Shown here: positions 2,566 through 38,766 of the stretch, piece after piece
Numbering within the stretch: the stretch's first letter is position 1
Layout: each line of letters begins with the position of its first letter
Sequence record: NC_007456.1
Source of the DNA: Escherichia phage K1F
Direction: 5' to 3' (one strand)
DNA: 39,704 bases
Made by a program: the position numbers and the translations under genes
The notes under the pieces: generated by a model
Databases searched by the model: none
The model's input: only the letters and a program-made list of their open reading frames with translations
Told to the model about the DNA's origin: nothing

Positions 2566-5247
2566 ATGAGCGTCATCTCTATTGACAAACACGACTTCTC
2601 TGATGTGTCGAACGCCATTGAGCCGTTTAACCTGCTGGCCGACCACTACGGGCAAGACCTTGCAGTCAAACAGCTTCAGCTTGAGCATGAGGCATACACT
2701 GAAGGCGAGCGACGTTTCATCAAAAACCTTGAGCGACAGACTGAGCGCGGGGAACTGGCAGACAATCAGGTCGCCAAGCCTTTGATGCAGACTCTGGTTC
2801 CTAAGATTGCGCAAGCCGTCAAGGAGTGGCACGAAGGTCCAGACGGGAAGCTGTCAACCTCTCGTCCTAGCGTAGCGTTCACCATGTTGAGCACTGAAGA
2901 GAGGGCCGTTAAAGACCGTTCTCTACGCATCTCCTGCGAGTCTGCTGCTGTCATCATACTGAAGGTCATCCTCTCCAAGCTGGTCAAGCCTGAAGGGATA
3001 CCGATTACACCGATGGCCTCCGCGATAGGTCGCACACTTGAGGACGAAATCCGCTTCGGGCGCATCCGTGACAAGGAGAAGGAGCACTTCAAGAAGGCGA
3101 TAGCTGATAACCTGAACAAGCGAGCTGGTGCATCCTATAAGAAAGCCTACATGCAAGCGGTCGAAGCATCCATGCTGGAGCAAGGCCAACTGGAAGATGC
3201 ATGGGGGACTTGGAGTCCTACAGAGGCTGTCCACGTTGGCATCAAGATGCTTGAGATTGTCATCCAGTCAACACAACTGGTCGAGCTTAAGCGTTACGGT
3301 GCTGGCAATGCAGCGGCTGATGTCGAGATGGTCCACCTGTCAGACTTCTGGGTCAAGAAGATGGCACAACGTGGATTCAGCCTTGCGGGTATCGCACCAG
3401 TCTATCAGCCTTGCGTCGTTCCACCTAAGCCGTGGACGGGTGTCGTAGGCGGTGGTTACTGGGCCAAAGGTCGCAGACCATTACCGCTGATTCGCTTAGG
3501 CTCTAAGTCTGCGGTAGCACGTTACGAAGACGTGTACATGCCTGAAGTCTATGAAGCTGTGAACATCATTCAGAATACACCTTGGAAAGTGAACAAGAAG
3601 GTTCTGGACGTGGTGAACATGGTCGAGAAGCTGAACAACACGCCTATTGATGACATCCCTCAGATGGAACCACTGAAGCCTGAGGCTTATGCGGGTGAGA
3701 CCGAGGAGGAACTCAAGGCATGGAAGAAGGCTGCTGCTGGTATCTATCGCCGCGAGAAGGCCAGACAGTCACGCAGGTTGTCACTGAGCTTTATCGTTAA
3801 CCAAGCGAACAAGTTCTCTCAGTTCAAGGCTATATGGTTCCCGTACAACATGGACTGGCGCGGTCGCGTCTACGCTGTGCCGATGTTCAACCCTCAGGGT
3901 AACGACATGCAGAAGGGTCTCCTGACTCTGGCAGTTGGCAAGCCTATTGGTGCTGACGGTTTCAAATGGCTAAAGGTACACGGTGCAAACTGCGCGGGTG
4001 TCGATAAAGTCACCTTCGAGGAGCGCATCAAGTGGGTGGAAGACAACCACGACAACATCATGGCTGCTGCTAAAGCACCTATGGACAGCATTGAGTGGTG
4101 GGGAAAGTTAGACTCTCCGTTCTGTTTCCTCGCGTTCTGCTTCGAGTATGCTGGCGTAATGCACCATGGCCTGTCTTACTCCTGCTCGCTGCCGATAGCG
4201 TTCGATGGGTCCTGCTCTGGGATTCAGCACTTCAGCGCGATGCTTCGTGACCACATCGGTGGACATGCGGTAAACCTGACGCCTTCCGGTAAAGTCCAAG
4301 ACATCTACCGCATCGTGTCCGACCGCATTGAGGAGGAGCTTAAAGTCCTGCTGGTTAACGGCACGGACAACGAGATGGTAACTCACGAGGACAAGAAAAC
4401 TGGTGAGATTACCGAGCGTCTCAAGCTGGGGACACGAGAGCTGGCCCGTCAGTGGCTGACCTACGGTATGTCACGAAAGGTCACTAAGCGTTCGGTCATG
4501 ACTCTGGCCTACGGGTCGAAAGAGTACGGCTTCGCAGACCAAGTTTACGAGGACATCGTGATGCCAGCGATTGACTCAGGGTCTGGCGCTATGTTCACTG
4601 AACCAAGCCAAGCATCTCGCTTCATGGCTAAGATGATTTGGGAAGCTGTGAGTGTGACCGTAGTTGCTGCGGTTGACGCGATGAAATGGCTTCAGGGTGC
4701 TGCCAAGCTGCTGGCGGCTGAAGTGAAGGACAAGAAGACGGGTGAAATCCTGAAGCCTTGCCTTCCGGTACACTGGGTCACACCTGATGGGTTCCCGGTC
4801 TGGCAGGAATACCGCAAGAAGGATACTACTCGTCTGAACCTGATGTTCTTAGGGTCCTTCAACCTTCAACCTACCGTCAACAAAGGTACGAAGAAAGAGC
4901 TGGATAAGCACAAGCAGGAGTCAGGCATTAGCCCGAACTTCGTCCACTCACAAGATGGTAGCCACCTCCGCAAGACTGTAGTCCATACTCACCGCAAGTA
5001 TGGCGTGATGTCGTTCGCAGTGATTCACGATAGCTTCGGGACCATCCCGGCTGACGCTGAGTATCTGTTCCGTGGGGTCCGTGAGACTATGGTCGAGACC
5101 TACCGCGACAACGATGTGCTGCTTGACTTCTACGAGCAGTTTGAATACCAGCTTCACGAGAGCCAGCGCGATAAGTTGCCAGAGCTTCCGAAGAAAGGTA
5201 AACTGAATATCGAAGACATCTTGTCTTCAGACTTTGCATTCGCTTAA
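2566..5247 (+). CDS. 1: Single-subunit DNA-directed RNA polymerase (T7 gene 1 homolog), 893 aa
   Basis: Collinear similarity to T7 RNAP from N-terminus (KHDFSD...PFN.LADHYG) to C-terminal DFAFA; AAGGA SD. Confidence 0.97.
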   Translation: MSVISIDKHDFSDVSNAIEPFNLLADHYGQDLAVKQLQLEHEAYTEGERRFIKNLERQTERGELADNQVAKPLMQTLVPKIAQAVKEWHEGPDGKLSTSRPSVAFTMLSTEERAVKDRSLRISCESAAVIILKVILSKLVKPEGIPITPMASAIGRTLEDEIRFGRIRDKEKEHFKKAIADNLNKRAGASYKKAYMQAVEASMLEQGQLEDAWGTWSPTEAVHVGIKMLEIVIQSTQLVELKRYGAGNAAADVEMVHLSDFWVKKMAQRGFSLAGIAPVYQPCVVPPKPWTGVVGGGYWAKGRRPLPLIRLGSKSAVARYEDVYMPEVYEAVNIIQNTPWKVNKKVLDVVNMVEKLNNTPIDDIPQMEPLKPEAYAGETEEELKAWKKAAAGIYRREKARQSRRLSLSFIVNQANKFSQFKAIWFPYNMDWRGRVYAVPMFNPQGNDMQKGLLTLAVGKPIGADGFKWLKVHGANCAGVDKVTFEERIKWVEDNHDNIMAAAKAPMDSIEWWGKLDSPFCFLAFCFEYAGVMHHGLSYSCSLPIAFDGSCSGIQHFSAMLRDHIGGHAVNLTPSGKVQDIYRIVSDRIEEELKVLLVNGTDNEMVTHEDKKTGEITERLKLGTRELARQWLTYGMSRKVTKRSVMTLAYGSKEYGFADQVYEDIVMPAIDSGSGAMFTEPSQASRFMAKMIWEAVSVTVVAAVDAMKWLQGAAKLLAAEVKDKKTGEILKPCLPVHWVTPDGFPVWQEYRKKDTTRLNLMFLGSFNLQPTVNKGTKKELDKHKQESGISPNFVHSQDGSHLRKTVVHTHRKYGVMSFAVIHDSFGTIPADAEYLFRGVRETMVETYRDNDVLLDFYEQFEYQLHESQRDKLPELPKKGKLNIEDILSSDFAFA

Positions 5248-5261: not shown

Positions 5262-5477
5262 ATGAAATTTGCACACAAGCATACTGGCGTTAATGGTGGG
5301 ACTCAAATCGTGACCGTAACAGAACACAACGGCAAGGGTCTGGTGAAGACCACGGTCATCCCTACCGAGATGTCCAAGCAGCTTAACATCCCGTTCAAGA
5401 CTCTTGTAGATCTGGTCGAGTCCAGCCACGAGAAGTACCTGAAGGACGCAGTGTCCAAGCTGGAGCAGGCCAAATGA
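5262..5477 (+). CDS. Hypothetical protein (71 aa)
   Basis: ORF with strong SD (aacaggagagagagctATG) immediately after gene 1. Confidence 0.55.
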   Translation: MKFAHKHTGVNGGTQIVTVTEHNGKGLVKTTVIPTEMSKQLNIPFKTLVDLVESSHEKYLKDAVSKLEQAK

Positions 5478-5551
5478 CAGACCTACAGTTACTGGCCTTG
5501 TGGCTAGGAGCACTCGCAGTATTCACTTTAATCCAACGCAGAAGAGGTTAA

Positions 5552-5574
5552 CCTAAACTATCACTATAGGATTA
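5552..5574 (+). promoter_or_regulatory. Phage RNAP promoter copy 2 (CCTAAACTATCACTATA|GGATTA)
   Basis: Consensus match; position equals T7 phi1.1 promoters downstream of gene 1. Confidence 0.75.
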
Positions 5575-5618
5575 GACTCAAGGTCATGACTCAAAGTCGT
5601 GGCCTTCATGATTAACCC
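5573..5618 (+). promoter_or_regulatory. Conserved ~45-bp element A (TAGACTCAAGGTCAT...GTGGCCTTCATGATTAACCC), RNase III-site-like
   Basis: One of three near-identical elements (5573, 12860, 36453) at positions matching T7 R1.1, R4.7, R18.5. Confidence 0.4.
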
Positions 5619-5647
5619 TGAATAAACACTACTGGAGATTTAACCGT

Positions 5648-5828
5648 ATGTATCAGAATACTATCAACTTCGAGCGCATCCGTGAACGTCAGCAGACTTG
5701 AAGGTTACATTCCTAAGGGCCGCAAGCTGAACAAGACTAAACGTGGAGGTGGTATCAAGGGTGCTTTCCGTAACGCTGAGGGCAAAGACTCTATGGTCAA
5801 CCAAGAGAAATACTTCGTAGGAGCATAA
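5648..5828 (+). other. Gene 1.1-like coding region split across two frames (17-codon ORF 5648-5701, then +1-frame basic segment KGRKLNKTKR... ending 5828)
   Basis: ATG 5648 has GGAG SD and NFE motif; downstream frame has GRKLNKTKR motif recalled from T7 gp1.1 but only a GTG start (5682). Confidence 0.4.
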
Positions 5829-5832
5829 CGCT

Positions 5833-6096
5833 ATGGGCCGACTTTATAGTGGCAACCTCAACGCTTTCAGAGCAGCGTGTGACAGGCTCTATCAGTTAGA
5901 CTTCGCTGTCATATCTCAAGAGTTTCAAGACCATGTGTCACGCCAAGAGTGCATGAAACTCAGGGTAGAGGACCGAGCTGGTAACATCTTCGCGCTTAAG
6001 ACCTTCGAACACCGCGATGAAAACGTACTGTACAACACTGCAACAGGCTTCCTTAACTGTCTCGCTAACCAACTCGACACATGGAGCAAATCATAA
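5833..6096 (+). CDS. 1.2: gp1.2-like protein (T7 dGTPase inhibitor homolog), 87 aa
   Basis: N-terminus MGRLYSGNLNAF... closely matches T7 gp1.2. Confidence 0.88.
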   Translation: MGRLYSGNLNAFRAACDRLYQLDFAVISQEFQDHVSRQECMKLRVEDRAGNIFALKTFEHRDENVLYNTATGFLNCLANQLDTWSKS

Positions 6097-7118
6097 TGAC
6101 AACTATTAAAACTAACCCGCACCGCGCTGTAGATTACTCTGAGTCTGGCGTTAAGAAGGCACTGGCAGCAGCCGGGTCGCTGGAAGCTGAAGTGAAGTAT
6201 GACGGTGTGCGCCTGAATCTCCCGGTCCTGCGTGAAGGTGAGACCTACTGGCTGAGCCGTGAGTCTAAACCTCTTCCAGCCTTGGAGTGGATGAACTCTG
6301 AGTTAGGGAATGCGTGGACCCAAGCTGACTGGCGTTGGTTCCTACGTCAAGCTGGATACGAAGGCGTGGGTCTGATGATTGACGGAGAGGTCATGGTCAA
6401 AGGCGTTGACTTCAACACATCATCGGGTCTCATCCGAACGAAGTGGCTGAAGCCTAGCAACGAAGAGTTCGCTGAATGTTATCCGGGACGAGGCAATAAG
6501 GTCCCGTTCTGGGTAGCCCGGTCAAGACTTAAGGTTGTTGTATACGGTGTCGTAGACATGACAACCATTGCTGACCCGAAAGCCGAAGGTCCTATCCATA
6601 GCGTAACCCGCCTGAAGGCCGAAGCTATCGTCCCTCTCCTTCAGAAATACTTCCCGGAAATCGACTGGGTTCTCTCTGAGAGTCATACAGTGTTCAACCT
6701 TGAGTCTCTTCGTGATTTGTACGAGGAGAAGCGAGCAGATGGACATGAAGGTCTGGTAGTCAAGGACCCACTGGGAAAATACAAGCGTGGTAAGAAGTCT
6801 GGTATGTGGAAGATGAAGCCAAGTGAAGAGGCAGATGGTCACGTTGTTCGCCCGGTGTGGGGAACAGAAGGTCTAGCCAACGAAGGTATGGTCATCGGCT
6901 TTGACGTTATGCTCGAGAACGGGATGGAGGTCTCCGCAACTAACATTAGTCGCGCCCTTATGTCCGAGTTCACAGAGAATGTTAAGTCAGACCCTGACTA
7001 CTACAAGGGGTGGGCTTGCCAGATTACCTACATGGAGGAGACACCAGATGGCTCATTGCGACATCCCTCGTTCGACCAGTGGCGTGGGACGGAAGATAAC
7101 CCGACCATTAAGAGCTAA
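6096..7118 (+). CDS. 1.3: ATP-dependent DNA ligase (T7 gene 1.3 homolog)
   Basis: IKTNP...EVKYDGVR (adenylation Lys motif) ...DGEVMVKGVDFNT...EGLVVKDP...WKMKP...WACQITYMEETPDGSLRHPSF; start at ATG 6096 (track 6081) overlapping 1.2 stop. Confidence 0.93.
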   Translation: MTTIKTNPHRAVDYSESGVKKALAAAGSLEAEVKYDGVRLNLPVLREGETYWLSRESKPLPALEWMNSELGNAWTQADWRWFLRQAGYEGVGLMIDGEVMVKGVDFNTSSGLIRTKWLKPSNEEFAECYPGRGNKVPFWVARSRLKVVVYGVVDMTTIADPKAEGPIHSVTRLKAEAIVPLLQKYFPEIDWVLSESHTVFNLESLRDLYEEKRADGHEGLVVKDPLGKYKRGKKSGMWKMKPSEEADGHVVRPVWGTEGLANEGMVIGFDVMLENGMEVSATNISRALMSEFTENVKSDPDYYKGWACQITYMEETPDGSLRHPSFDQWRGTEDNPTIKS

Positions 7119-7487: not shown

Positions 7488-7930
7488 CTACTTATGATAA
7501 TATGATTATCAAGCTAATCGATATGAACGATGGTAATCCAGACCATTTATATAACTGTTCCTTCAATTGTGCTGGAGTTCCTTGTAACATCTGCCCCGCT
7601 AAGGATGATGACGATATGACCTTAGGTGAAATCCGAGCGATGGACCCGCGTAAATCTCATCTGAATAAACTTGAGGTAACTCCTACAGATGACCAGCCTT
7701 CCACTGAATCAATCGAAGGTGTCACTAAGCCTTCCCATTACATGCTGTTCGACGACATTGAGGCTATCGAAGTGATTGCCCGTTCAATGACTCGTGAGCA
7801 GTTCAAAGGGTACTGCTTAGGGAACATCCTTAAGTACCGCCTACGCGCTGGTAAGAAAGTCAGAACTTGCTTACTTAGAGAAAGCCAGGGCGAAAGTTGG
7901 ATTCTATGGGGAACTGTACGAGAAACATAA
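7484..7930 (+). CDS. gp1.7-like protein (DUF3310-like motifs); C-terminus appears to continue in +1 frame to 7952
   Basis: Motifs KPSHY...IEAIEV...FKGYCLGNILKYRLRAGKK; after AAGAAAG (7853-7859) the +1 frame reads SELAYLEKARAKVGFYGELYEKHKDKCYDA*. Confidence 0.6.
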   Translation: MTTYDNMIIKLIDMNDGNPDHLYNCSFNCAGVPCNICPAKDDDDMTLGEIRAMDPRKSHLNKLEVTPTDDQPSTESIEGVTKPSHYMLFDDIEAIEVIARSMTREQFKGYCLGNILKYRLRAGKKVRTCLLRESQGESWILWGTVRET

Positions 7931-10178: not shown

Positions 10179-10630
10179 GTAAGGTGCAATTCAACCCACG
10201 GTCCCGGACTGACGCTATCTTCGTTCACTGTTCGGCTACCAAGCCAGAGATGGACATCGGGGTAGAGACCATCCGTATGTGGCACAAGCAGCAGGCTTGG
10301 CTGGACGTAGGCTACCACTTTATCATCAAGCGTGATGGTACTGTGGAAGAGGGTCGCCCGGTAAATGTCGTAGGGTCACACGTTAAGGATTGGAACTCCC
10401 GGTCTGTAGGCGTCTGCCTTGTAGGTGGAATCAACGCTAAGGGTCAGTTTGAAGCTAACTTCACTCCAGCCCAGATGAACTCCCTGCGCAACAAGCTGGA
10501 TGACCTGAAGGTCATGTATCCTCAGGCAGAGATAAGAGCACACCATGACGTAGCACCAAAGGCGTGTCCAAGTTTCGACTTACAGCGCTGGCTGTCTACC
10601 AATGAACTGGTCACTTCCGACCGTGGTTAA
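10172..10630 (+). CDS. 3.5: N-acetylmuramoyl-L-alanine amidase / T7 lysozyme homolog (gene 3.5)
   Basis: VQF..R...DAIFVHCSATKP...WH..Q.WLDVGYHFIIKRDGTVE.GR...VGSH.KG.N..S.GVCLVGGI...AHHDVAPKACPSFDL.RW...ELVTSDRG. Confidence 0.93.
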   Translation: MVSKVQFNPRSRTDAIFVHCSATKPEMDIGVETIRMWHKQQAWLDVGYHFIIKRDGTVEEGRPVNVVGSHVKDWNSRSVGVCLVGGINAKGQFEANFTPAQMNSLRNKLDDLKVMYPQAEIRAHHDVAPKACPSFDLQRWLSTNELVTSDRG

Positions 10631-12900: not shown

Positions 12901-12920
12901 ACTAAAGCGGAGGATTAACC

Positions 12921-14936
12921 ATGTTTGACCTTAAGGATATTTGGGGTTCGGACATCGAGACCAACGGTCTCCTTGACACCGTGTCCCAGTTCCATTGTGG
13001 GGTCCTGATTAATGCCGAGTCGAATGAGACCCTTAAGTATGGGGTAGCGCCGATGGTCGGTATCGTCGGTGGCTTCAAAGAGTATGTACAGAAGGTGGAA
13101 GAAATTGCTGCAACGCCTACGGGTATGCTGGTCTTCCATAACGGTATCAACTATGACGTCCCGGCTATAGACAAGCTGAAGCGTTTGTACTTTGGGAAAC
13201 GATTTAACTTCCCGAAACACAAGATGATTGATACCTTGGTGCTGGGCCGCTTGATGTATCCCAACATTAAGTTCTCAGACATGGGAGCGGTGAAAGCTGG
13301 TCGTCTGCCACCTAAGATGATGGGACGCCAGTCTCTTGAGGCTTGGGGCTATCGTCTCGGTGAGATGAAAGGTGAATACAAACACGATTACGTTGCCAAA
13401 TGCAAGGCTGAAGGTATCGAATATAAGGCTGGGGACGAATGGTTGTTCCCGTCTCAGGAGATGCTGGACTATAACGTTCAAGACGTTGTGGTCACACTGG
13501 CGTTGTTCAAGAAGTTCCTGACTGACAAGTATTACTTCCAGTCTGAACAGTTCGCTTTCGAACAGATTTATGCGTTGCGTCTGGAACATGATGCTGCGTG
13601 GACCTGTGCTAAGATGGAACGTAACGGCTATCCAATGAACACAGAGATGGTCGAAGGCTTATATCGTGAACTCACCGTCAAACGTGCAGAGTTGCTGGAC
13701 AAGCTGCGTTCGACTTTCGGTAGCTGGTACGCACCAAAGGGAGGCAAGGAGTTCTTCAGGCATCCACGGACAGGTAAGGACCTTCCGAAGTATCCGAGGG
13801 TCGTGTATCCTAAGGTTGGTGGCATCTTTAAGAAGCCGAAGAACAAAGCTCAACGATTAGGTCTTGAACCTTGTGAACGCGATACGCGAGACACGATGGA
13901 GGGAGCACCATTCACACCTATCACTTACGTTGAGTTTAATCCGGGAAGCGGGGACCACTTAGCGAAAGTTCTGATGGAGCGTGGCTGGGAGCCTGTGGAC
14001 TTCACTGACACCGGGAAACCTGTAGTCGATGACGAGACGTTAGAACATGTTAAGTTACCAGACGCAGAGGCTCAGGCTTGCGTAGAGCTGGTCCGTGAGT
14101 ATCTGGTAGTCCAGAAGCGCATAGGTCAGGCTGCTGAAGGTAAGAACGCATGGTTGAAACTTGTAGGGCCAGACGGACGTATGCACGGTTCAATCAACCC
14201 ATGTGGTGCAGTAACCGGACGTGCTACCCATAGTTCACCAAACATGGCTCAGGTCCCGGCTAACGGTGCTCCGTATGGTGAGACTTGCCGTGGTGCTTTC
14301 GGTGCAGCTTGGAACAAGACGGATGGTAAGCCAGACCCTTGGATTCAAGTGGGTGTGGATGCTTCAGGTCTTGAGCTTCGTTGTCTGGGGAACCGAGCGG
14401 CTCCGTTTGATGGTGGTGCCTATGCGAAGACTGTGGTAGAAGGTGACATCCACTGGGCCAACGCAGTAAACGCTGGGTTAGCACCTAACGTCCCACGCGA
14501 TAAGTCGAACCACGACCATGATGCTTTCCGTAATAACGCTAAGACGTTCATCTATGCGTTCCTGTATGGTGCAGGGGCCGCTAAGATTGGACTGATAGTA
14601 GGCGGTGGTAAGAAGGAAGGTTCAGCTCTCATGAAGAAATTCATTGAGGGTACACCAGCCATCAAAGACCTCAGGGAAGCTGTGAGTAATACGTTAATCT
14701 CTGAGTCCAAATGGGTAGACGGTGAGAATATCGTGAAGTGGAAACGCCGCTGGCTTAAAGGCTTGGATGGTCGACGCATCCACATCCGGTCTCCACACTC
14801 AGCACTTAACGCCTTACTTCAAGGTGATGGTGCGGTAGTCTGTAAGCACTGGATTGTTGAGACAGAACGTATGCTCGAAGAGGCCGGGTATGTCCACGGC
14901 TGGGAAGGAGACTTCGCGTACATGGCATGGGTGCAT
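12921..14936 (+). CDS. 5: DNA polymerase (T7 gene 5 homolog), exon 1 (672 codons, ends ...YMAWVH)
   Basis: 3'-5' exo motif DIETNGL; ...FHNG.NYDVPA...EAWGYRLGEMKGEYK...DYNVQDVVVT...; ORF track stops at TAA 14937-14939, the first intron codon. Confidence 0.9.
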
Positions 14937-15534
14937 TAACATCATGGTGCACATTAAATCTGGTGAACTCGGTGAACTCCTAATGGGACAATACCGAGCC
15001 AAGCCATAGGGAGGATGTATGAGAGGCAAGAAGTTAATTCTTGAGGCCACTGAGACTGGCTGCATAATCCCTACGTCACATAAATTGAATCAGGATGGAT
15101 ACTTCCGAAAGAGGACTAACGGTGTCCTTGAGATGTATCATAGAACTGTATGGATTAAAGCTAATGGTCCAATACCTGAAGGTTTCGAAGTAGACCACAA
15201 GTGTCGTAATAGAGCTTGTTGCAACGTCGAACATCTACAAGTATTAGACCGTGACTCACACTTAGTCAAGACCAACCAAGAGCGATACGCTGCTAGGAAG
15301 CTAGAAGCACGAGACTACTGGGTAGAGACTGGGTGTACAGGAACGAAGTTAGCCGAAGTATTCAATGTGTCGTTCTCAGCCGCCTGTGGGTGGATTAGAG
15401 AGTGGAAGGCGTAGAGACTATCCGAAAGGAGTAGGGCCGTGGGTGAGATTCCCACGTAACCCGAAGCGCCAGACAGTCACCTCAAAGACTGATGATATAG
15501 TCCGACACTTCCAGTAATGGGAGAATACAGAAAG
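14937..15534 (+). mobile_element. Group I-type intron (598 bp) in DNA polymerase gene, carrying an HNH endonuclease ORF
   Basis: Exon 1 ends in U (14936), intron ends in G (15534); P1-like pairing of exon GUGCAU (14931-14936) with GUGCAC (14947-14952); exons join in frame to give WVH|DELQIACRT. Confidence 0.7.
15019..15414 (+). CDS. HNH homing endonuclease (131 aa) within the intron
   Basis: HNH motif EVDHKCRNRACCNVEHLQV; strong SD AGGGAGGA; free-standing ORF. Confidence 0.85.
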   Translation: MRGKKLILEATETGCIIPTSHKLNQDGYFRKRTNGVLEMYHRTVWIKANGPIPEGFEVDHKCRNRACCNVEHLQVLDRDSHLVKTNQERYAARKLEARDYWVETGCTGTKLAEVFNVSFSAACGWIREWKA

Positions 15535-15690
15535 GATGAGTTACAGATTGCTTGTCGTACTCAAGAAATAGCAGAACGTACAGTCGAAATTGCGCAGCTA
15601 GCTATGCGTAAGGTGGGTGAGTTCTATAACTTTAAATGTGTCCTTGATACCGAAGGTAAGATTGGACCAACTTGGAAGGAGTGTCACTAA
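15535..15690 (+). CDS. 5: DNA polymerase exon 2 (51 codons: DELQIACRTQEIAERTVEIAQLAMRKVGEFYNFKCVLDTEGKIGPTWKECH)
   Basis: Matches remembered T7 DNA polymerase C-terminus (...VGCRTEEIAQ...WNFRCLLDTEGKMGPNWAICH); no SD before in-frame ATG 15517. Confidence 0.75.
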   Translation, partial: DELQIACRTQEIAERTVEIAQLAMRKVGEFYNFKCVLDTEGKIGPTWKECH

Positions 15691-22179: not shown

Positions 22180-22310
22180 GCACTTTTAGCCAACCTAACG
22201 TCGCTACAGTAGCGGCTGCACCTGAAGAGGAGACTCTAACTCCTCAACAGAAAGCTGCGCGTACTCGTGCTGCGAACAGGGCCGATAAACTGGCTGAGTC
22301 CAACAACTAA
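21136..22310 (+). CDS. 10: Minor capsid protein 10B by predicted -1 frameshift at GGTTTTC (22158-22164), about 391 aa
   Basis: Heptamer G GTT TTC in 0 frame near 10A end; -1 frame stays open 48 codons (QPSGVSTFSQPNVATVAAAPEEETLTPQQKAARTRAANRADKLAESNN) to TAA 22308-22310, just before Tphi. Confidence 0.6.
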
Positions 22311-22313
22311 TTG

Positions 22314-22352
22314 AAACCCCTTGGGTGCCTTCGGGTGCTTGAGGGGTTTTTG
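22314..22352 (+). terminator. Tphi-like terminator (AAACCCCTTGGGTGCCTTCGGGTGCTTGAGGGGTTTTTG)
   Basis: GC-rich hairpin with U-tract; near-identical in form and position to T7 Tphi. Confidence 0.85.
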
Positions 22353-22372
22353 CTTAAAGTGAGAGGAGACTT

Positions 22373-22939
22373 ATGGCTCAATACATTCCACTGAATGCTA
22401 ACGATGACTTAGATGCCATCAACGATATGTTAGCTGCTATCGGTGAACCAGCAGTCCTACAGCTTGACGAGGGGAACGCTGACGTATCGAACGCTCAACG
22501 TATCCTGCATCGTGTCAATCGTCAGGTCCAAGCTAAAGGATGGAACTTTAACATTAATGAAGCTGCTGTCCTGACACCTGATGTCCAAGACAACAGGATT
22601 CGATTCTTGCCGTCATACCTTCGTGTAATGACCGCTGGGGCCACCAGCTACTACAGCAACATGGGTGGATACCTGTACGACCTGTCCACTCAGTCAACCA
22701 CTTTCACCGACCCTATCACGGTAGAGCTTGTGGAGATGAAGCCATTCTCCGAGATGCCTGTGGTCTTCAGGGACTACATCGTCACTAAAGCTAGCCGTGA
22801 GTTCAACGCTAAGTTCTTCGGTAGCCCAGAGTCTGAACTGTACCTTCGTGAGCAGGAAGCAGAACTCTATCAGCAGGTCATGGAATACGAGATGGATACT
22901 GGTCGCTACAACATGATGTCCGACATTGGGAGGGACTAA
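22373..22939 (+). CDS. 11: Tail tubular protein A (T7 gene 11 homolog)
   Basis: ...AINDMLAAIGEP...NA.RIL...NRQ.Q..GW.FNI.E......FSEMP..FR.YIVTKASR.FN..FFG.PE; SD GAGAGGAGA. Confidence 0.93.
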   Translation: MAQYIPLNANDDLDAINDMLAAIGEPAVLQLDEGNADVSNAQRILHRVNRQVQAKGWNFNINEAAVLTPDVQDNRIRFLPSYLRVMTAGATSYYSNMGGYLYDLSTQSTTFTDPITVELVEMKPFSEMPVVFRDYIVTKASREFNAKFFGSPESELYLREQEAELYQQVMEYEMDTGRYNMMSDIGRD

Positions 22940-25296
22940 TGCCGCTTATTACGCAAAGCATAAAAAATCTTAAGGGCGGCATTAGCCAACAGCCTGACAT
23001 CCTGAGGTTCTCAGACCAAGGCGAGGCACAGGTTAACTGCTGGTCATCCGAGAGTGATGGACTCCAGAAGCGTCCACCTACAGTCTTCAAGCGACGTCTT
23101 AACATCGACGTTGGAAGCAACCCTAAGTTCCACCTGATTAACCGTGATGAGCAGGAGCAGTATTACATCGTGTTCAATGGGTCAAACATTCAGATAGTTG
23201 ACTTGAGTGGTAATCAATACTCAGTGTCAGGTTCGGTAGACTACGTTAAGTCCTCCAACCCACGAGATGACATCCGTGTCGTTACCGTGGCAGACTATAC
23301 GTTCGTCGTTAACCGTAAGGTTGTCGTCAAAGGTGGAAGCGAGAAGTCACACTCTGGTTATAACCGCAAAGCACGAGCTTTAATTAACCTACGTGGTGGA
23401 CAGTATGGTCGAACCCTTAAGGTGGGAATCAACGGTGGCGTTAAGGTCTCGCATAAGCTACCAGCAGGTAATGATGCCGAGAATGACCCACCTAAGGTGG
23501 ACGCTCAAGCCATTGGTGCAGCTCTGAGAGACCTTCTTGTCACTGCCTACCCTACCTTCACGTTTGACCTTGGGTCTGGATTCCTGCTAATCACAGCTCC
23601 TTCAGGGACCGATATTAATTCAGTGGAGACGGAGGATGGCTACGCTAACCAGCTAATAAGCCCAGTCCTAGACACTGTGCAGACAATCTCTAAACTACCT
23701 CTTGCCGCTCCTAATGGGTATATCATTAAGATTCAAGGTGAGACAAACAGTAGCGCCGATGAATACTACGTGATGTATGACTCCAACACTAAGACGTGGA
23801 AGGAGACAGTGGAGCCGGGAGTTGTCACTGGGTTCGATAACACCACAATGCCACACGCCCTGGTACGACAATCTGATGGCTCCTTTGAGTTCAAGGCTCT
23901 GGACTGGTCTAAGCGTGGTGCTGGTAATGATGACACAAACCCTATGCCTAGCTTCGTGGATGCCACGATTAACGATGTGTTCTTCTACAGGAACAGGCTA
24001 GGGTTCTTGTCAGGCGAGAACGTAATCATGAGCCGTTCAGCCAGCTACTTTGCGTTCTTCCCTAAGAGTGTGGCGACACTGAGTGATGATGACCCTATTG
24101 ATGTAGCTGTAAGTCACCCTCGAATCTCAATCCTTAAGTATGCCGTTCCGTTTAGCGAGCAGCTACTACTTTGGTCGGATGAGGTTCAGTTCGTGATGAC
24201 AAGCTCTGGTGTCCTTACCTCGAAGTCTATCCAGCTTGATGTAGGCTCAGAGTTTGCCCTAGGTGACAATGCCAGACCGTTCGCTGTAGGACGCTCAGTC
24301 TTCTTCTCAGCTCCTCGTGGGTCATTCACCAGCATTAAGCGATACTTCGCTGTAGCTGATGTGTCTGATGTGAAGGATGCAGATGATACAACTGGTCACG
24401 TACTGTCCTACATCCCTAACGGGGTGTTTGATATTCAAGGTACAGGGACTGAGAACTACATCTGCGTCAACTCTACAGGTGCATACAACCGTATCTACAT
24501 CTACAAGTTCTTGTTTAAGGACAGCGTACAGCTTCAAGCCTCTTGGTCACACTGGGAGTTCCCTAAAGATGATAAGATTCTTGCGTCTGCTTCTATTGGC
24601 TCTACCATGTTCATCGTTCGTCAGCACCAAGGAGGGGTAGACATTGAGCACCTTAAGTTCATCAAGGAGGCAACTGACTTTCCGTCAGAGCCGTATAGAC
24701 TCCACGTTGACTCCAAGGTGTCTATGGTCATCCCAATTGGCTCGTTTAATGCTGACACATATAAGACTACGGTTGACATTGGTGCTGCTTATGGCGGTAA
24801 CGCTCCGTCTCCCGGTCGGTACTATCTGATTGACAGTCAGGGTGCTTATTTGGACCTTGGGGAATTAACCAGTATCTCTACTGTGATTACCCTCAACGGC
24901 GATTGGTCAGGACGTACAGTGTTCATCGGACGGTCCTATCTGATGTCCTACAAGTTCTCACGGTTCCTGATTAAGATTGAAGATGATAGTGGCACTCAGT
25001 CTGAAGACACTGGTCGTCTACAGCTTCGTCGGGCTTGGGTCAACTACAGGGACACTGGCGCTCTGAGACTCATTGTCAGAAACGGTGAGCGAGAGTTCGT
25101 TAACACCTTTAATGGGTACACCCTTGGTCAGCAAACCATAGGGACTACTAACATTGGTGACGGGCAGTATCGCTTCGCTATGAATGGTAACGCATTAACC
25201 ACGAGTCTAACCTTAGAGTCCGACTATCCTACCCCAGTGTCAATCGTTGGATGTGGCTGGGAGGCGTCATACGCTAAGAAAGCTCGTTCCGTCTAA
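22939..25296 (+). CDS. 12: Tail tubular protein B (T7 gene 12 homolog)
   Basis: MPLITQSIKNLKGGISQQPDILRF.DQG...NRLGFLSGENV...ILKYAVPFSE.LL.WSDE.QFV...IGRLQLRRAWVNY...IVGCGWE. Confidence 0.95.
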   Translation: MPLITQSIKNLKGGISQQPDILRFSDQGEAQVNCWSSESDGLQKRPPTVFKRRLNIDVGSNPKFHLINRDEQEQYYIVFNGSNIQIVDLSGNQYSVSGSVDYVKSSNPRDDIRVVTVADYTFVVNRKVVVKGGSEKSHSGYNRKARALINLRGGQYGRTLKVGINGGVKVSHKLPAGNDAENDPPKVDAQAIGAALRDLLVTAYPTFTFDLGSGFLLITAPSGTDINSVETEDGYANQLISPVLDTVQTISKLPLAAPNGYIIKIQGETNSSADEYYVMYDSNTKTWKETVEPGVVTGFDNTTMPHALVRQSDGSFEFKALDWSKRGAGNDDTNPMPSFVDATINDVFFYRNRLGFLSGENVIMSRSASYFAFFPKSVATLSDDDPIDVAVSHPRISILKYAVPFSEQLLLWSDEVQFVMTSSGVLTSKSIQLDVGSEFALGDNARPFAVGRSVFFSAPRGSFTSIKRYFAVADVSDVKDADDTTGHVLSYIPNGVFDIQGTGTENYICVNSTGAYNRIYIYKFLFKDSVQLQASWSHWEFPKDDKILASASIGSTMFIVRQHQGGVDIEHLKFIKEATDFPSEPYRLHVDSKVSMVIPIGSFNADTYKTTVDIGAAYGGNAPSPGRYYLIDSQGAYLDLGELTSISTVITLNGDWSGRTVFIGRSYLMSYKFSRFLIKIEDDSGTQSEDTGRLQLRRAWVNYRDTGALRLIVRNGEREFVNTFNGYTLGQQTIGTTNIGDGQYRFAMNGNALTTSLTLESDYPTPVSIVGCGWEASYAKKARSV

Positions 25297-25320
25297 CTTA
25301 TTGAAGGGCCTATAGATTTA

Positions 25321-25343
25321 CCTTAACTATCACTATAGGGACT
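25321..25343 (+). promoter_or_regulatory. Phage RNAP promoter copy 9 (CCTTAACTATCACTATA|GGGACT)
   Basis: Consensus match; upstream of gene 13. Confidence 0.75.
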
Positions 25344-25372
25344 ATAGGCCCTTAAGGTTATAAGGAGACTTT

Positions 25373-25843
25373 ATGTATATTCGCAAGGCTACGGAACCAG
25401 ATGTCCACTACTTTCTGTGGCATCTTTCAGCAGATGATGTTAATGAGTGCAAAGCAAACTATGGGTCAACCGTTGGTCTCTCTGAAAGACTGCTTAAGCA
25501 CCTATCTCCGTCATCTGTGGTTTTAACGAACGGTGTAGGCGAAGTGTTTTCCTATGGTGGAAACCAAGGTGATAACGTATGGTTCTTGACTTCCGGTCTT
25601 GTCTATAAGCTGAGACCTAAAGAGAAGCGGGAGTTCATAAAGCGTATCTCTGAGTACAGGGACTTAATGTTAGACCAATACGGGACCATCTGGAACTACG
25701 TGTGGTCAGGCAATAAGTCTCACATTAAATTCTTGAAGTTACTAGGCGCTAGGTTTCACGATGAGTGGACCACAAGTCCGGTAACTGGTGAGCGTTTTCA
25801 ACTATTCACTATCTCTAAGGAGGACGTATGTGCGAGCCAGTAA
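25373..25843 (+). CDS. Internal virion protein A-like (gene 13 position), 156 aa
   Basis: ORF with AAGGAGA SD between tail tube B and gp14 homolog; positional assignment. Confidence 0.65.
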   Translation: MYIRKATEPDVHYFLWHLSADDVNECKANYGSTVGLSERLLKHLSPSSVVLTNGVGEVFSYGGNQGDNVWFLTSGLVYKLRPKEKREFIKRISEYRDLMLDQYGTIWNYVWSGNKSHIKFLKLLGARFHDEWTTSPVTGERFQLFTISKEDVCASQ

Positions 25844-26415
25844 GTATCGGTCTAGGAATCATGGCTGTAGCAGGGGCCACTATGTCCGCATCTCAACAGG
25901 CCAAAGCTGAGGGTGCTGCTATCGACGCTCAGAACCGACAGGCTCAGGAGATGGTTAAGCAGATGAATTACTCTGACGCCAACCTAAGGATGCAGGAGCG
26001 AGACCTTAAGGAACAGCAGATGGCTGAACTGACAGAGACCACGTTAAACGGTATCCGCAATCAGGGCATGGTACGAGCTGCGGTAGCTGAGTCCGGTCTG
26101 GAAGGAAACTCTATGGACAGGATTGAACGTCAGGTAGAGGGAGATACAGTCAAGGAGAGAGCAGGGATTACCGAAAGTTACAACCGCGACTATGCGGCTA
26201 TCTTTGGGAACCGTATCGCCAACATTGAGAACACCAAGTCTGCTATCCGTGGTCAAGGTAAAATCATCAAGACTAGCCCACTGGCTCATGCACTTAATGT
26301 TGCTAACGCCGGTATGCAGGGATACGCTGCTGGTAAGTCAATCTCTGGGGCATCAAGCTCTGGTGGTTCTGCACCGATTAGTGCTGCTAAAGGCACACCT
26401 ACAGGTCATAGCTAA
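25828..26415 (+). CDS. 14: Internal virion protein B (T7 gene 14 homolog)
   Basis: Size and composition like T7 gp14 (MC start, Ala/Gln-rich, ...NSMDRIER...); AAGGAGGA SD. Confidence 0.8.
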   Translation: MCEPVSIGLGIMAVAGATMSASQQAKAEGAAIDAQNRQAQEMVKQMNYSDANLRMQERDLKEQQMAELTETTLNGIRNQGMVRAAVAESGLEGNSMDRIERQVEGDTVKERAGITESYNRDYAAIFGNRIANIENTKSAIRGQGKIIKTSPLAHALNVANAGMQGYAAGKSISGASSSGGSAPISAAKGTPTGHS

Positions 26416-26426
26416 GAGGAGGACTA

Positions 26427-28709
26427 ATGGCTAGTAATATTGAATCAGCTCTGGCTAATCGGACTATGGGTCGTGGCAGAGCGCCGGGTAAAACTATCGC
26501 CGTCAACTATCAAGCAGCCAGCGTTCAGGCTCCAACTGGTGACTCAGGTCTGGCTCGGGCGTTAACCAACTTCGTTGAGTCTGGTACTGGATTATACAAG
26601 CAGTTCAAAGACGAGGAGAAGACACGGGCCGACGAGCGGTCTAACGAGATTATCCGTAAGCTGACACCTCAGCAAAGACGTGAGGCTATCCAGAACGGCA
26701 CATTGCTGTATCAGGATGACCCTTACGCTATGGAAGCACTTCGAGTCAAGACTGGTCGTAATGCTGCCTTTGCTGTAGACGACGAGATTAACGTTAAGAT
26801 TCAGAACGGTGAGTTCCGTACACGTCAGGACATGGAAGAGTATCGCCACCAGCGACTTCAGGACGCCGCTAAGTCCTATGCTGAAGAGGCGGGTATTAAC
26901 CCTACGGACGAGTTCTTCCAGCGTGGGTTCAACGATAACATCACAGACCGCAACATCGCTATCTATGGGTCTTTCAATAAGTATTTCAGCAAGCAGTCTG
27001 AAGAGACAGCAATGTTGAACACCCGTATTGAGATGAACTCATTCCTGAACGATGGCGACCTGATGCGTTCACCTGAGTCTGGCAAGACATTCATGGCCTA
27101 CCTTCGTGACGGACTGACTACTGCTGCTATCCCCTCGGACCAGCGAGCGCGGGAGGTCATTACCCAGACGGTCCGTGACGCAATCCAGAAGTCAGGCGGC
27201 TCAAACTTCCTACAGCAAGTACGAGGCGAGCGAATCACCCTTAACGGCGTGGATGCTACAGTCGAAGAGATTGTAGGACCTGATATCTTCAACGCTGCTA
27301 TTGTTGAGGCACAAGGAACTGAGTACAAGCTGGTGGCTAAGTATCAGGAAGACTTAGCGTTAGGCGTTCAGTCTGCGATTCTTCAGGACGACCCAACCAT
27401 CGGTCTGGCCCAGATTCAAAAACTCAAGGAGCAGAACAACCTGCTTCAACCGGGTGAAGAACTCACACCTCAGCGTCAGATGCTTATTAATGCCGAAGCC
27501 AGCTTACTGGAAGCGGTAAAGCGTAAGTCTGCTGAACAGGCGAAGGAGAACACGAAGTTAATCCAGACCCAGAACAAGCAACTGGTCATTGACCAAGTGT
27601 ATCAGCGACGTCTGGCTGGAGACAACGTGTCCACCAACTATGAGGACCTTCCGGTCTCTGAAGCCACAGGAGAGTTCAAGCGTTCAGACATGAACAACTA
27701 TGCGTCTTCTAAGCTACAGCAGATTGACCAGATGGACATACCTGAGGCTGCTAAGGACGCCCAGAAGGTGGCATTGTTAAGAGCTGACACTAACAACGGT
27801 CCGTTCCGTAATGCCTTCCAGACGCTTACTCAGGACGCTGCTGGTGAGTGGCAAGCTGCTGTCATCCGTGGACAGTACGACCCAGACAAGATGAAACGCT
27901 TCGAGTCTCTTCGTCGTGCCTACACTCAGGACCCTTCAAGTTTCGCTGCTCTGTATCCTGACCAAGCTCAGCTGTTCTCTACGTTCGACCAGATGGACAA
28001 GATGGGTCTGGACCCTCAGACGATGATTGAAGCTGATAAGCAAGCTGCAAGTCAAAGCCGTGAGATGCGCATGGAGTCAGACAAGGCGTGGCAGGAGTTG
28101 AAGAACGACTCTCGGAATAAGGACCTTTCGCGTCTTCCTACGTCTCTGGACTCAAGTGCTCGTAAGGTCTGGGACTCATGGTACTATCGTACAGGTAACG
28201 CTGACGCTGCAACTCAGCAGACTCAACGCTGGCTGAATGAGAACACCGTAACGTTCCAGTCTGAGGGTTCTGATGGTAAGTCCATCGGCATGGTGTCCAA
28301 ACACCAGCTTATGGTCGGGGATAACCCAGAGTCGTGGCAGGTGGGTCGAGACATTATAGACACAGCTCGTCAGCAGCTCATTAAGGCCAACCCTTGGGTA
28401 GTGAACTCTCAGTTGTCCGTTGTTGAACAGAACGGCTCTATCTTCCTCCAAGACGCTACGGGGACTATTCGTATTCGATACGATAAAGAACTTGTAGGTA
28501 AACTCTACCGCGAACAACAGCAGAAGGCACAAGATGCCGCATATGCTCAGGCAGAACGTGACGCTAACAAGCGAGCGCGTATCGTCGGGACTAAAGCTGC
28601 TGGTGACAAACGTCGAGCTGACCGAGAGGCCAACATCGAGAAGCGCGGTGGGATGTACAATGACGTCTCACTGGAGGGTATCGCAAATGCACTAATCGGT
28701 AAGGAGTAA
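26427..28709 (+). CDS. 15: Internal virion protein C (T7 gene 15 homolog)
   Basis: ADERSNEIIRKLTPQQRREAIQNGTLLYQDDPYAMEALRVKTGRNAAF matches T7 gp15 nearly exactly; collinear thereafter. Confidence 0.93.
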   Translation: MASNIESALANRTMGRGRAPGKTIAVNYQAASVQAPTGDSGLARALTNFVESGTGLYKQFKDEEKTRADERSNEIIRKLTPQQRREAIQNGTLLYQDDPYAMEALRVKTGRNAAFAVDDEINVKIQNGEFRTRQDMEEYRHQRLQDAAKSYAEEAGINPTDEFFQRGFNDNITDRNIAIYGSFNKYFSKQSEETAMLNTRIEMNSFLNDGDLMRSPESGKTFMAYLRDGLTTAAIPSDQRAREVITQTVRDAIQKSGGSNFLQQVRGERITLNGVDATVEEIVGPDIFNAAIVEAQGTEYKLVAKYQEDLALGVQSAILQDDPTIGLAQIQKLKEQNNLLQPGEELTPQRQMLINAEASLLEAVKRKSAEQAKENTKLIQTQNKQLVIDQVYQRRLAGDNVSTNYEDLPVSEATGEFKRSDMNNYASSKLQQIDQMDIPEAAKDAQKVALLRADTNNGPFRNAFQTLTQDAAGEWQAAVIRGQYDPDKMKRFESLRRAYTQDPSSFAALYPDQAQLFSTFDQMDKMGLDPQTMIEADKQAASQSREMRMESDKAWQELKNDSRNKDLSRLPTSLDSSARKVWDSWYYRTGNADAATQQTQRWLNENTVTFQSEGSDGKSIGMVSKHQLMVGDNPESWQVGRDIIDTARQQLIKANPWVVNSQLSVVEQNGSIFLQDATGTIRIRYDKELVGKLYREQQQKAQDAAYAQAERDANKRARIVGTKAAGDKRRADREANIEKRGGMYNDVSLEGIANALIGKE

Positions 28710-28713
28710 CATA

Positions 28714-31700
28714 ATGGCGACTCGTGGTATTCGCAATAACAATCCGGGGAACATCCGGGTAAGTAAGGACCAATGGGAAGGAATGACTGGAGATGATGGC
28801 GCATTTGTCACTTTCGATAGTCCAGAGTCTGGCGTCCGAGCTTTAGGTAAAAACCTGCTGTCCTACGGTCGCCAAGGTTATGACTCCATCGAGAAGATCA
28901 TCAACCGATGGGCGCCTCCTAATGAGAATGACACTCAGGCTTATATTGACTCAGTGGTGGCTGCGACTGGTATCCCAGCTACCCAGAGTCTAGACCTCTC
29001 GAACCCGGACACCCTGTCTGCTCTGGCGCAAGCTATCAGCTTCCATGAGACAGGTTCCCGGTACAACCCTGAAGTATACCAACAGGGGGTCGCAAGAGCA
29101 CTCAACGGTATCAGCCCAAAGACTCCACCAGTAAGCGCTAACGTATTTGACGCACTCACGGAAGGACTCAAGGCTAAACCTAAAGTAGCTCTGGGTGAGA
29201 ACCTTCCGACCGCTGCTGGTCTGAACATTGAGGGTCAAGCACCTGAAGCTCCCAACGAATCGTTCGGTGAGATGTTCTATAAGGCTACTGGAGAGACCAT
29301 GCAGGAACGAGAGGATCGCTCTACGTGGTTCGGTTTCGGTACGGCTACAGAAGCTGAAGTGAAGAACTCTATGGTCGGCGTGGCTATCCGCGCTGGTCAG
29401 ACTGAGGACTCACTGGATGTCATTGGCGATGTGTTCAACCCAACCCGATGGAATAACCATAAGTGGTCTCGTGAGGAGCTGGACCAGATTCGTAACGCTG
29501 GGGTTCTGCCTCAGTATTACGGGGTCATTACTGGTGGCTCCCCTCAGAACCTGACCGAGCTTATTAACTTGGCGCTTGAGAACCAGAAGTTTGACCAAGA
29601 GAAGGCCAAGGCCGGGACTGGCGCTCAACTGGCGGCTGGTGTGATTGGTGCTGGCGTGGACCCTCTGACCTACGTTCCTATTGCTGGGCAGGTAGGTAAA
29701 GGTGGGAAGCTAGTCAACAAGATGTTCACTGTGGCTGCTCAGTCTGGTGCTCTGGCTGGGGCATCCGAGATTGCTCGAACCTCAGTTGCTGGTGGGGACG
29801 CTCATGTGGCTGAGGCAATTATGGGCGGTGCTCTCTTCGGTGGGGGAATGACAGCTATCGGGGACGCTATCGGCAAGGCCTTAGGCAAGTCAACCAACGA
29901 GTTCGCCGGGCCAGCCACACGTCTGGAAGCCCGTGAGACTGCACGTAATGTTGATGGTCAGGACCTGTCGCGTATGCCAATCCGTGAAGGAGAGGAGACC
30001 TTTAGTCACCAAGGCGTTAAGTTCGCTGACGTGCCGAATGAGCCGGGAAGTGTACGATTAGAAGACGGTTCAATCCTGATTGGTGAGAACCCTCTGAACC
30101 CTAAGACACGTCAAGTCTTTGACGAAGTGATTGAGCCAGAACGTGCCGCTGCTGGTGTGAACCTTGGCGGACTTACCGAGATTGGTCTGAAGCTGCTTCG
30201 GTCTGAGAACCCGGAGATTCGTGGTGTAGCTACTGACTTAGTGCGTTCACCGACTGGTATGCAGTCTGGGGCCTCAGGTAAAATCGGGACCACTGCGTCT
30301 GACGTATTCGAGAGACTTCGTGCTGTAGACCATCGGTTCTACAACGACATCGACGATGCTGTTACTGAGGCACTCAAGGACCCTTACTTCCAGACAGCAT
30401 TCTGGCGAGACTCTGGCGCATTCCGTCAAGACATCTATCAGCGTGTGTCTATGGCTATCGAAGATGGTAGTGGGAACCTGAAGGCTGAACTGACTCCGGG
30501 AGAACTGAAAGTCTATGACCTGCTGAAGAACCAGTTCGACGCCAAGCGTGAGATGATGGAGAACCCAGCTATGTTTGGTCGGCCAGACGCTCAGTCTATC
30601 TTTCCGGGCAGCCGCTTCAAGGGAACCTACGTCCCGCATGTGTATAGCAAACAGATGAAGGAGCTGTACATCAAGGAGCTTGGGAGTCCAGAGGCGTTGC
30701 AGGAGGCCATCAAGAAGTCATGGTTGACCAGCTATGCGTCTCGACCTGAAGTCAAGAAACGCGTGGACGAGGCACTCTTAGAGGCTGACCCTACGTTGAC
30801 CCCAGAAGGACTTGCTGCTGCGGTCGATAAGTACGCCAACGATAAGGCTTACGGTATCTCTCACACCGAGCAGTTCGAACGTTCATCCGTAATGGAAGAG
30901 AACATCAACGGTCTGGTTGGTCTGGAGAACAACAGCTTCCTTGAGGCTCGTAACCTGTTCGATAGCGATATGTCAATCGTCCTACCTAACGGTCAGACCT
31001 TCAGTGTCAACAACCTGCGTGAGTGGGACATGGACAAGATTGTCCCGGCCTACAACCGTCGAATTAATGGCGATATTGCTATCATGGCTGGTACAGGCAA
31101 AACCACGAAGGACATGAAGGACTTGGTTGAGACCATGATGAACAAGGCTGGGGATGACGGTAAGTTGAAAGGTGAAGTATCTACCTTACGTGACACCTTG
31201 AAGATTCTAACTGGTCGTGCTCGACGTGATGGTGCTGATGATGCAGCCTTCGCTACCGTGATGCGCACAATGACAGACCTATCGTTCTTCGCTAAGAATG
31301 CCTACATGGGTGTTCAGAACTTAACGGAGATTGGTGGTATGCTGGCTCGTGGCAACGTTCGTGCAATGCTGCATGGAGTCCCAATTTTCCGTGACCTAGC
31401 CTTCCGTAACAAGAAGGTTGGGGCCTCAGAGATTAAGGACCTGCACAATGTTATCTTCGGTAAGGAACTGGATGACTCAATCCGTCCGTCTAAACAGGAT
31501 GTCATTGACCGTCTGCGATCTTACAGTGACCTAGGTCGTGGTACAGCTACAGCTCTGGGGACTGCCAAGTATTACACTGGCGAACTTGCAGTACGCTCTC
31601 CGTTCACTAAAGTCCTCAACGGTACGACCAACTACCTGTTAGATGCTGGACGTCAGGGCTTCCTGTCTGACATCGTGGAGCATAGCCTGACTGGTAGTAA

Positions 31701-32601: not shown

Positions 32602-32619
32602 ACTATCACTATAGGAAAC
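32597..32619 (+). promoter_or_regulatory. Phage RNAP promoter copy 10 (ACTAAACTATCACTATA|GGAAAC)
   Basis: Consensus match; overlaps gene 16 stop; upstream of tail spike gene. Confidence 0.75.
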
Positions 32620-32665
32620 GGGAGGCGCTACCATAGGTCTCCGCTTAAATCACAAAGGAGGCATA

Positions 32666-35860: not shown

Positions 35861-35993
35861 TAAACAAAACCATTTTGCCATTAAGTTGGTGGGGTAGATG
35901 TTAGAAGGTTGTGGAGGTAGAGGCTAACTACACGCTAACCAACGTATGTAACAACTTTGGGTCACGGACGACCCGCTTTAAACTGGAGGTTTT

Positions 35994-36188
35994 ATGATTG
36001 AGTTAGACTTCAAGAATGAGGTCCTTAAAGCCTCTCCTATCGTCGGGACCGCTGCGGCTGATGGTGCCAGTCGGTTCTTCTTTGGACTCACACTGAACGA
36101 ATGGTTCTACGTTGCGGCTATCGCGTACACCGTTGTCCAAATTGGTGTGCTGGTCTACAAAACGATTAAAGGAGGTGGTAAAACATGA
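35994..36188 (+). CDS. 17.5: Holin (T7 gene 17.5 homolog), 64 aa
   Basis: ...SPIVGTAAADGASRFFFGLTLNEWFYVAAIAYTVVQIG... near-identical to T7 gp17.5 core; one TM segment; SD GGAGG. Confidence 0.85.
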   Translation: MIELDFKNEVLKASPIVGTAAADGASRFFFGLTLNEWFYVAAIAYTVVQIGVLVYKTIKGGGKT

Positions 36189-36448
36189 CGCAGATGGACT
36201 TAGAGAAGTTCCTATTGATGCTGGATACTGAACGTGCTCGACTCATGCTGCAAGACTTACGTGACGACTCTAAGCGTTCACCTCAGCTCTACAACGCCAT
36301 TGAGAAGCTGCTTGCTCGTCACAACTTTGTGTTAAGCAAGGTGTCTGTGGACGAGAAGACGCTGGCTGATATGGAGGCCCTGAACGCAGAGTACGATAAG
36401 GTGCTTTCAGCGACTGAGGATAATGACACCGGGTATGGTGTTCAATAA
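36185..36448 (+). CDS. 18: Terminase small subunit (T7 gene 18 homolog)
   Basis: ...RSPQLYNAIEKLLARH.F... matches T7 gp18 (RSPQLYNAIEKLLDRHKF); ATGA overlap with holin. Confidence 0.85.
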   Translation: MTQMDLEKFLLMLDTERARLMLQDLRDDSKRSPQLYNAIEKLLARHNFVLSKVSVDEKTLADMEALNAEYDKVLSATEDNDTGYGVQ

Positions 36449-36452
36449 GTGT

Positions 36453-38757: not shown

Positions 38758-38766
38758 CTGAGTGAA

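Follow-up and report, generated by a model that had tools for sequence, protein, structure and literature searches.

An extra T private to one database record, most likely a sequencing error, splits the T7 gene 1.1 homolog of Escherichia phage K1F

In phage T7, gene 1.1 (NP_041961.1, 42 aa) encodes a small, very basic protein and lies between gene 1 (RNA polymerase) and gene 1.2, preceded by a phi1.1-type promoter and an R1.1-like hairpin. The gene is dispensable in T7. The K1F locus described here has the same flanking genes, the same kind of promoter and hairpin, and a likewise small and very basic product with which T7 gp1.1 shares the motifs NFE and KGRKLNKTKR; in the sequence that we analyzed, however, its coding information is divided over two reading frames. 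A second described system that invites comparison is the +1 frameshift of prfB (RF2), in which the pausing element is a stop codon occupying the A site; as in prfB, the K1F sequence has a UGA at the point from which a +1 shift would lead back into frame.

Two public sequences exist for K1F, a phage of the genus Kayfunavirus. The one under study (NC_007456.1, 39,704 bp, hereafter “the window”, meaning the entire stretch of DNA analyzed) goes with the AAZ-series proteins, a match to DQ111067 / NC_007456 that is partly our own presumption, and the other is AM084414 / NC_007636, at 39,699 bp. The K1F genome of Scholl & Merril 2005 appears under DQ111067 in PMC6301781 and under NC_007456 in PMC4925675. 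Gene order and a megablast search agree that the window is K1F, and its exact 178-bp terminal repeat marks it as a complete genome. The genome of vB_EcoP_PR_Kaz2018 (MN510331), with 95.28% identity to K1F, also has a 178-bp terminal repeat and is also 39,704 bp long; its ends were set from related genomes, so that this length match with the K1F record may not be independent. The gene order around the locus is RNA polymerase (2566-5247), a series of small open reading frames (ORFs), a gp1.2-like gene (5833-6096) and ligase (6081-7118), with the following features in between:

5558-5570, + strand: phage RNA polymerase promoter core CTATCACTATAGG, probably serving the gene 1.1-1.2 transcript, counterpart of T7 phi1.1 (motif count and alignment with T7 phi1.1B)
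5568-5619, + strand: leader RNA, predicted to fold as stem, internal loop and stem, R1.1-like (MFE -20.1 kcal/mol, z -2.4)
5634-5637, + strand: Shine-Dalgarno (SD) core GGAG (read from the sequence; GGAG also precedes the ATG in most related leaders compared)
5648-5698, + strand: codons 1-17 of the gene 1.1 homolog, MYQNTINFERIRERQQT (pN/pS 0.12 in relatives; NFE aligns with residues 3-5 of T7 gp1.1)
5699, + strand: extra T, which may be either base of TT 5698-5699 (private to the record; the resulting change of frame brings in TGA 5699-5701)
5700-5828, + strand: codons 18-59 and stop codon TAA of the gene 1.1 homolog, EGYIPKGRKLNKTKRGGGIKGAFRNAEGKDSMVNQEKYFVGA (match to PF08200; pN/pS 0.09)
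5833-6096, + strand: gene 1.2, dGTPase inhibitor homolog (gp1.2 in AM084414; dGTPase inhibitor in T7; fixes the T7 1.1-1.2 synteny)

Read directly from the window, ATG 5648 opens an ORF of 17 codons on the + strand, MYQNTINFERIRERQQT, which stops at TGA 5699-5701, and the +1 frame, which contains LEGYIPKGRKLNKTKRGGG, is open from 5649 to TAA 5826-5828. The sole start codon in this second frame is GTG 5682, which would give 48 aa, and the window as written encodes 17 aa plus an unstarted remainder of 42 codons. The initial annotation had described this arrangement as gene 1.1-like coding information split between two frames that could be fused by skipping one base, and both points hold: deletion of one T yields a conserved ORF. 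The site is TT 5698-5699 rather than “around 5696”, however, and the fused product has 59 aa instead of approximately 62. The SD that had been called good is a decent one (GGAG 5634-5637), but its spacer of 10 nt to ATG 5648 is rather long.

The protein encoded by the repaired ORF matches the Pfam family PF08200 (Phage_1_1, Bacteriophage 1.1 protein) over residues 6-49 with 43.1 bits (E 6.1e-11; the gathering cutoff of the family is a whole-protein score of 21 bits), and this match bridges the break, while the 48-aa fragment from the +1 frame on its own scores 26.8 bits. With BLASTP, it shares 15 of 37 aligned residues (41%, E 7e-6) with T7 gp1.1, MRNFEKMTKRSNRNARDFEATKGRKLNKTKRDRSHKRSWEGQ; NFE aligns before the break and the identical KGRKLNKTKR after it. 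The T7 motif named in the initial annotation was correct, and the T7 protein aligns across the point at which the K1F frame is broken. The likeness to T7 gp1.1 has its limits, in that the identity of 41% extends over 37 residues only and the K1F protein is 17 residues longer at its C-terminus (GGGIKGAF...EKYFVGA). The ORF occupies the position expected of gene 1.1, flanked by the RNA polymerase gene and gene 1.2 and 3' of a phage promoter. Judged by family match, alignment and synteny, the repaired ORF is the K1F homolog of T7 gene 1.1.

The upstream region agrees with this assignment in its layout. The promoter core has 12 matches with at most two mismatches in the window against 0.89 expected (nine exact, all on the + strand), and a “phi” promoter is annotated in EcoDS1 at the site equivalent to 5558-5570. 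The lower stem of the leader starts beside the transcription start of this promoter. For the leader, an RNAalifold consensus was computed from 16 diverse sequences (K1F-like, Klebsiella-phage and T7), giving 17 pairs, five of which show compensatory double changes, with a nearly invariant internal loop; the homologous T7 leader, ACTCAAGGTC...GGCCTTYATGA, lies directly after phi1.1A. Leader 5568-5619 therefore appears to be the homolog of the T7 RNase III processing site R1.1, which we take to be the R1.1 of Dunn & Studier 1983. No Rfam family covers leader 5568-5619.

The naming of the small ORFs in this region is a trap for comparisons, because the “gp1.1” of AM084414 is an unrelated protein and the true homolog of T7 gene 1.1 is the gene called “gp1.15” there. 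The unrelated “gp1.1” corresponds to a 71-aa ORF at 5262-5477 (+ strand), whose only match is phrog_8082 (unknown function), with none to Pfam Phage_1_1; EcoDS1 gives the name “1.1” to both ORFs. The stop codon of the 71-aa ORF overlaps the ATG (ATGA) of a 25-codon ORF at 5474-5551 (+ strand), MTDLQLLALWLGALAVFTLIQRRRG, which is hydrophobic with a basic tail and is unannotated in AM084414.

We then located the cause of the split by nucleotide alignment over 5620-5840, in which a single indel separates the window (ACTTGAAGG) from AM084414, Vec13 and vB_EcoP-22664BS1 (ACTGAAGG). AM084414, which is an independent sequence of K1F, is identical to the window over this interval except for one T, and shares its ATG, stop codon and neighboring genes. 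Removal of that T from the window gives an ORF of 59 aa identical to gp1.15 of AM084414, the same gene with T where the window has TT. AM084414, Vec13 and 22664BS1 each encode one ORF of 59 aa, MYQNTINFERIRERQQTEGYIPKGRKLNKTKRGGGIKGAFRNAEGKDS(M/L)VNQEKYFVGA, and MYQNTINFERIRERQQTEGYIPKGRKLNKTKRGGG... is read as one ORF in AM084414 and relatives; the ORF is annotated as gp1.15 in AM084414 (CAJ29349.1) and as gp1.1 in EcoDS1. A single uninterrupted ORF is thus found in AM084414 and its relatives but not in the window, where the stop at 5699-5701 intervenes, a difference that we attribute to an error in the record. Alignment with T7 gene 1.1 and relatives had been proposed in the initial annotation as a check, and the relatives indeed read through without the extra T. 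Homologs starting at the GTG of the +1 frame, which the initial annotation had named as a refuting observation, were not seen; homologs begin at the ATG and continue without interruption.

The extra T was missing from every relative examined as well as from AM084414. A 42-nt megablast probe centered on TT, which can match only records bearing TT since megablast requires a 28-nt exact word, had no matches in 50,697 phage records. The corresponding 41-nt probe with a single T matched 82 phage records. In IMG/VR, the exact 21-nt TT pattern was likewise not found. In a collection of 15 billion proteins, the repaired 59-aa protein is present on 11 contigs. We rejected the converse possibility that AM084414 is the faulty record, because the four complete relatives, the 82 records found with the short probe and 77 IMG/VR loci all side with AM084414.

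These wider searches also bear on an explanation offered in the initial annotation, namely that selection on these genes has been relaxed, and on its wider form, a decay of several early genes (gene 1.1, gp1.7 and SSB) throughout the K1F-like phages. The presence of several frame anomalies within one genome would fit such decay. The relatives speak against it. With the 59-aa protein as a tblastn query, the full protein was found in one frame in 601 of 604 phage records (Kayfunavirus, Przondovirus and others), and an intact ATG-initiated ORF of 58 or 59 codons was found at 77 of 79 IMG/VR loci, all 77 nucleotide sequences being distinct; of the two exceptions, one is cut by an early stop (50 aa) and the other is a distant relative in which the match starts at residue 7. 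Across the 77 distinct sequences, the mean pairwise pN/pS was 0.12 before the break (codons 1-17) and 0.09 after it (codons 18-59), and variable sites were in excess at third positions on both sides (7/4/13 at codon positions 1/2/3 in codons 1-17; 10/8/38 in codons 18-59). As pN/pS is around 0.1 on both sides of the break and the ORFs are intact, we conclude that this is one ORF under strong purifying selection. Moreover, AM084414 and the four complete relatives show none of the anomalies. A pseudogene arising by relaxed selection was therefore rejected, and lineage-wide decay has in our view almost no chance of being the explanation. The two halves in the window are also more than a chance neighborhood of ORFs: the family match of the repaired protein bridges the break, and in relatives purifying selection acts on both halves in a single frame.

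If TT were real, a programmed +1 ribosomal frameshift that skips U5699 at ACU-UGA could still yield the full protein; indeed, a +1 shift at ACU U GAA restores the protein of the relatives exactly, and the UGA would offer the same kind of pause as in prfB. The K1F site nevertheless differs from prfB in having no slippery CUU-U codon, no upstream SD-like element and no conservation, being present in one database record only. The TT site is missing in AM084414 and in all relatives; from the sequence, tRNA-Thr would not re-pair from ACU to CUU; and the 15 nt upstream (CGUGAACGUCAGCAG) contain no SD-like stimulator. The 91 nt downstream fold no better than shuffled sequences (z +1.3), and an Rfam search at the candidate frameshift site gave no match. 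Lacking conservation, slippery codon, stimulators, downstream structure and an Rfam match, programmed frameshifting was rejected, and we consider it extremely improbable. A broader version, in which TT is real, full-length gp1.1 arises by an unconventional +1 shift at ACU-UGA, and the T-before-stop insertions in gp0.38 and SSB described below are likewise real and specially decoded, strikes us as scarcely credible.

To place the extra T in context, we compared the window with AM084414 over the whole genome and found 12 differences:

2244: extra T in the window (gp0.38)
2260: A missing in the window (gp0.38)
5699: extra T in the window (gene 1.1 homolog)
7858: extra A in the window
7885-7897: three substitutions
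8612: extra T in the window (SSB)
8632: A missing in the window (SSB)
10112: extra C in the window
10294-10297: GGCT in the window, AGGC in AM084414
12632: extra G in the window
15900: extra T in the window
22285: A in the window, C in AM084414

These are seven single-base insertions, two single-base deletions, two short changed blocks and one lone substitution, and all seven insertions lengthen an existing run of bases. All 12 are confined to the left 22.3 kb; the stretch 22,286-39,704 has no difference. Four complete genomes (Vec13, EcoDS1, LM33_P1 and CLB_P1) are closer to AM084414 than to the window at every alignable site, save for a tie of CLB_P1 at the 10294 block. Where the indels lie, these four relatives need no gaps against AM084414 and one or two against the window (one gap at 5699). 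The initial annotation had counted the split as a third frame anomaly of the early region next to those in the gp1.7-like and SSB genes. Both of these anomalies are real, each being a private 1-nt insertion, but the anomalies as a whole are not confined to the early region: they run from 2.2 to 15.9 kb, and the single substitution is at 22.3 kb. Its suggestion of sequence errors, on the other hand, agrees with the findings, as the extra T is private and is accompanied by eight more private 1-nt indels and two changed blocks. Overall, the initial reading is partly supported, in its appeal to sequence error and not in its appeal to relaxed selection.

The consequences for the encoded proteins are considerable. 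In the window, gp0.38 meets a stop at codon 13 and its frame is regained 16 nt later through the lost A, while the four relatives are open through the frame of AM084414; the single-stranded DNA-binding protein (SSB, gp2.5) meets a stop at codon 18 and regains its frame 20 nt later, also through a lost A; and the gene 1.1 homolog meets its stop at codon 18. The C-termini of gp1.7, gp3.2 and gp5.5 are shifted, one residue of gp3.5 is changed, and the C-terminal Asp-Phe of the gp4 primase-helicase is replaced by an extension of 22 residues. In the same collection of 15 billion proteins, the frameshifted gp1.7 (148 aa, AAZ72972.1 / YP_338098.1) and gp4 (586 aa, AAZ72981.1 / YP_338107.1) are both singletons, each found on one K1F contig only.

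A separate irregularity concerns gene 5 (DNA polymerase, at about 12,920-15,690 of the window), which AM084414 annotates as two joined pieces with gp5.3 nested between them; the counterpart of gp5.3 in CLB_P1 carries the annotation HNH homing endonuclease. The arrangement points to an interruption of the intron or intein kind, which is common to K1F and CLB_P1 and missing in Vec13, EcoDS1 and LM33_P1.

The pattern of differences allowed us to weigh a record error against a real mutation. It could be that the extra T is real and arose in a particular laboratory stock of K1F, making gene 1.1 a recent pseudogene of a dispensable gene in one lineage. Given that gene 1.1 is non-essential in T7, such a mutant would be viable; the two K1F records were produced in different laboratories and are not identical; and the derived state is always in the window wherever the relatives can be compared, which would also fit the accumulation of mutations in one stock. 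In addition, three of the four extra T's (2244, 5699 and 8612) create an immediate in-frame stop (TAG, TGA and TGA), which is somewhat above expectation: duplication of a T run in K1F coding sequence gives an immediate stop in 16% of cases, or 24% if a purine follows (P 0.015-0.045, post hoc). This baseline is as high as it is because, within the coding strand, TGA and TAG are mostly found as NNT GAN or NNT AGN, and the excess is probably a product of codon structure and small numbers, too weak to build on.

Other features of the same record are hard to reconcile with a living stock. Gene 2.5 is essential in T7 (Kim & Richardson 1993), and we assume the same for K1F. The stop at codon 18 of SSB, produced by the same T-to-TT change, should for that reason be non-viable, and further private indels lie in replication genes. 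A “compensating” deletion placed 3' of a stop has no biological rationale but is typical of a mis-spaced trace, so that the paired +1/-1 changes, 16-20 nt apart in gp0.38 and SSB, resemble misreadings of traces. Indels outnumber substitutions, which is the opposite of natural divergence, and TT is carried by no other record or contig. Since the SSB insertion would be non-viable if real, the record must contain T-to-TT errors, and the T at 5699 is most economically explained as another one. A mutation in the sequenced stock therefore seems to us unlikely.

Our preferred reading, to which we assign a probability of roughly 87%, is that TT 5698-5699 represents one T duplicated by a base-calling or assembly error, and that the split of the gene exists only in the database. 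Private to this record, the insertion is at odds with an independent sequence from the same isolate; the ORF obtained on repair is the conserved one; and the record holds further private indels of the same kind, with implausible changes elsewhere (the stop at codon 18 of SSB, the gp0.38 pattern and the loss of Asp-Phe in gp4). From this we infer that the insertion is a fault of the record and not a mutation in the sequenced DNA, and that the two-frame split is most likely not real biology. The actual K1F phage would then carry a single intact gene of 59 codons; its transcription would proceed from the promoter at 5558-5570 through the R1.1-like RNase III hairpin, and its translation would begin at ATG 5648, immediately 5' of gene 1.2.

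The 59-aa product is a basic protein of 6.8 kDa with a pI of 10.2. A PDB sequence search with the repaired protein gave no match even at E-values up to 10. On the basis of its charge and the conserved KGRKLNKTKR motif, one might speculate that it binds nucleic acid or the ribosome. Co-expression of T7 Ocr and gp1.1 is noted to result in effective shut-off of host protein synthesis (PMC7064336).

In practical terms, about ten private indel errors break or distort eight genes in NC_007456.1 (gp0.38, the gene 1.1 homolog, gp1.7, SSB, gp3.2, gp3.5, gp4 and gp5.5), making this reference unsafe for phage engineering, annotation transfer and gene-content comparison; AM084414 / NC_007636 should be used instead. 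The split itself touches no open biological question. The gene is already annotated, and gp1.1 is a strongly conserved small basic protein.
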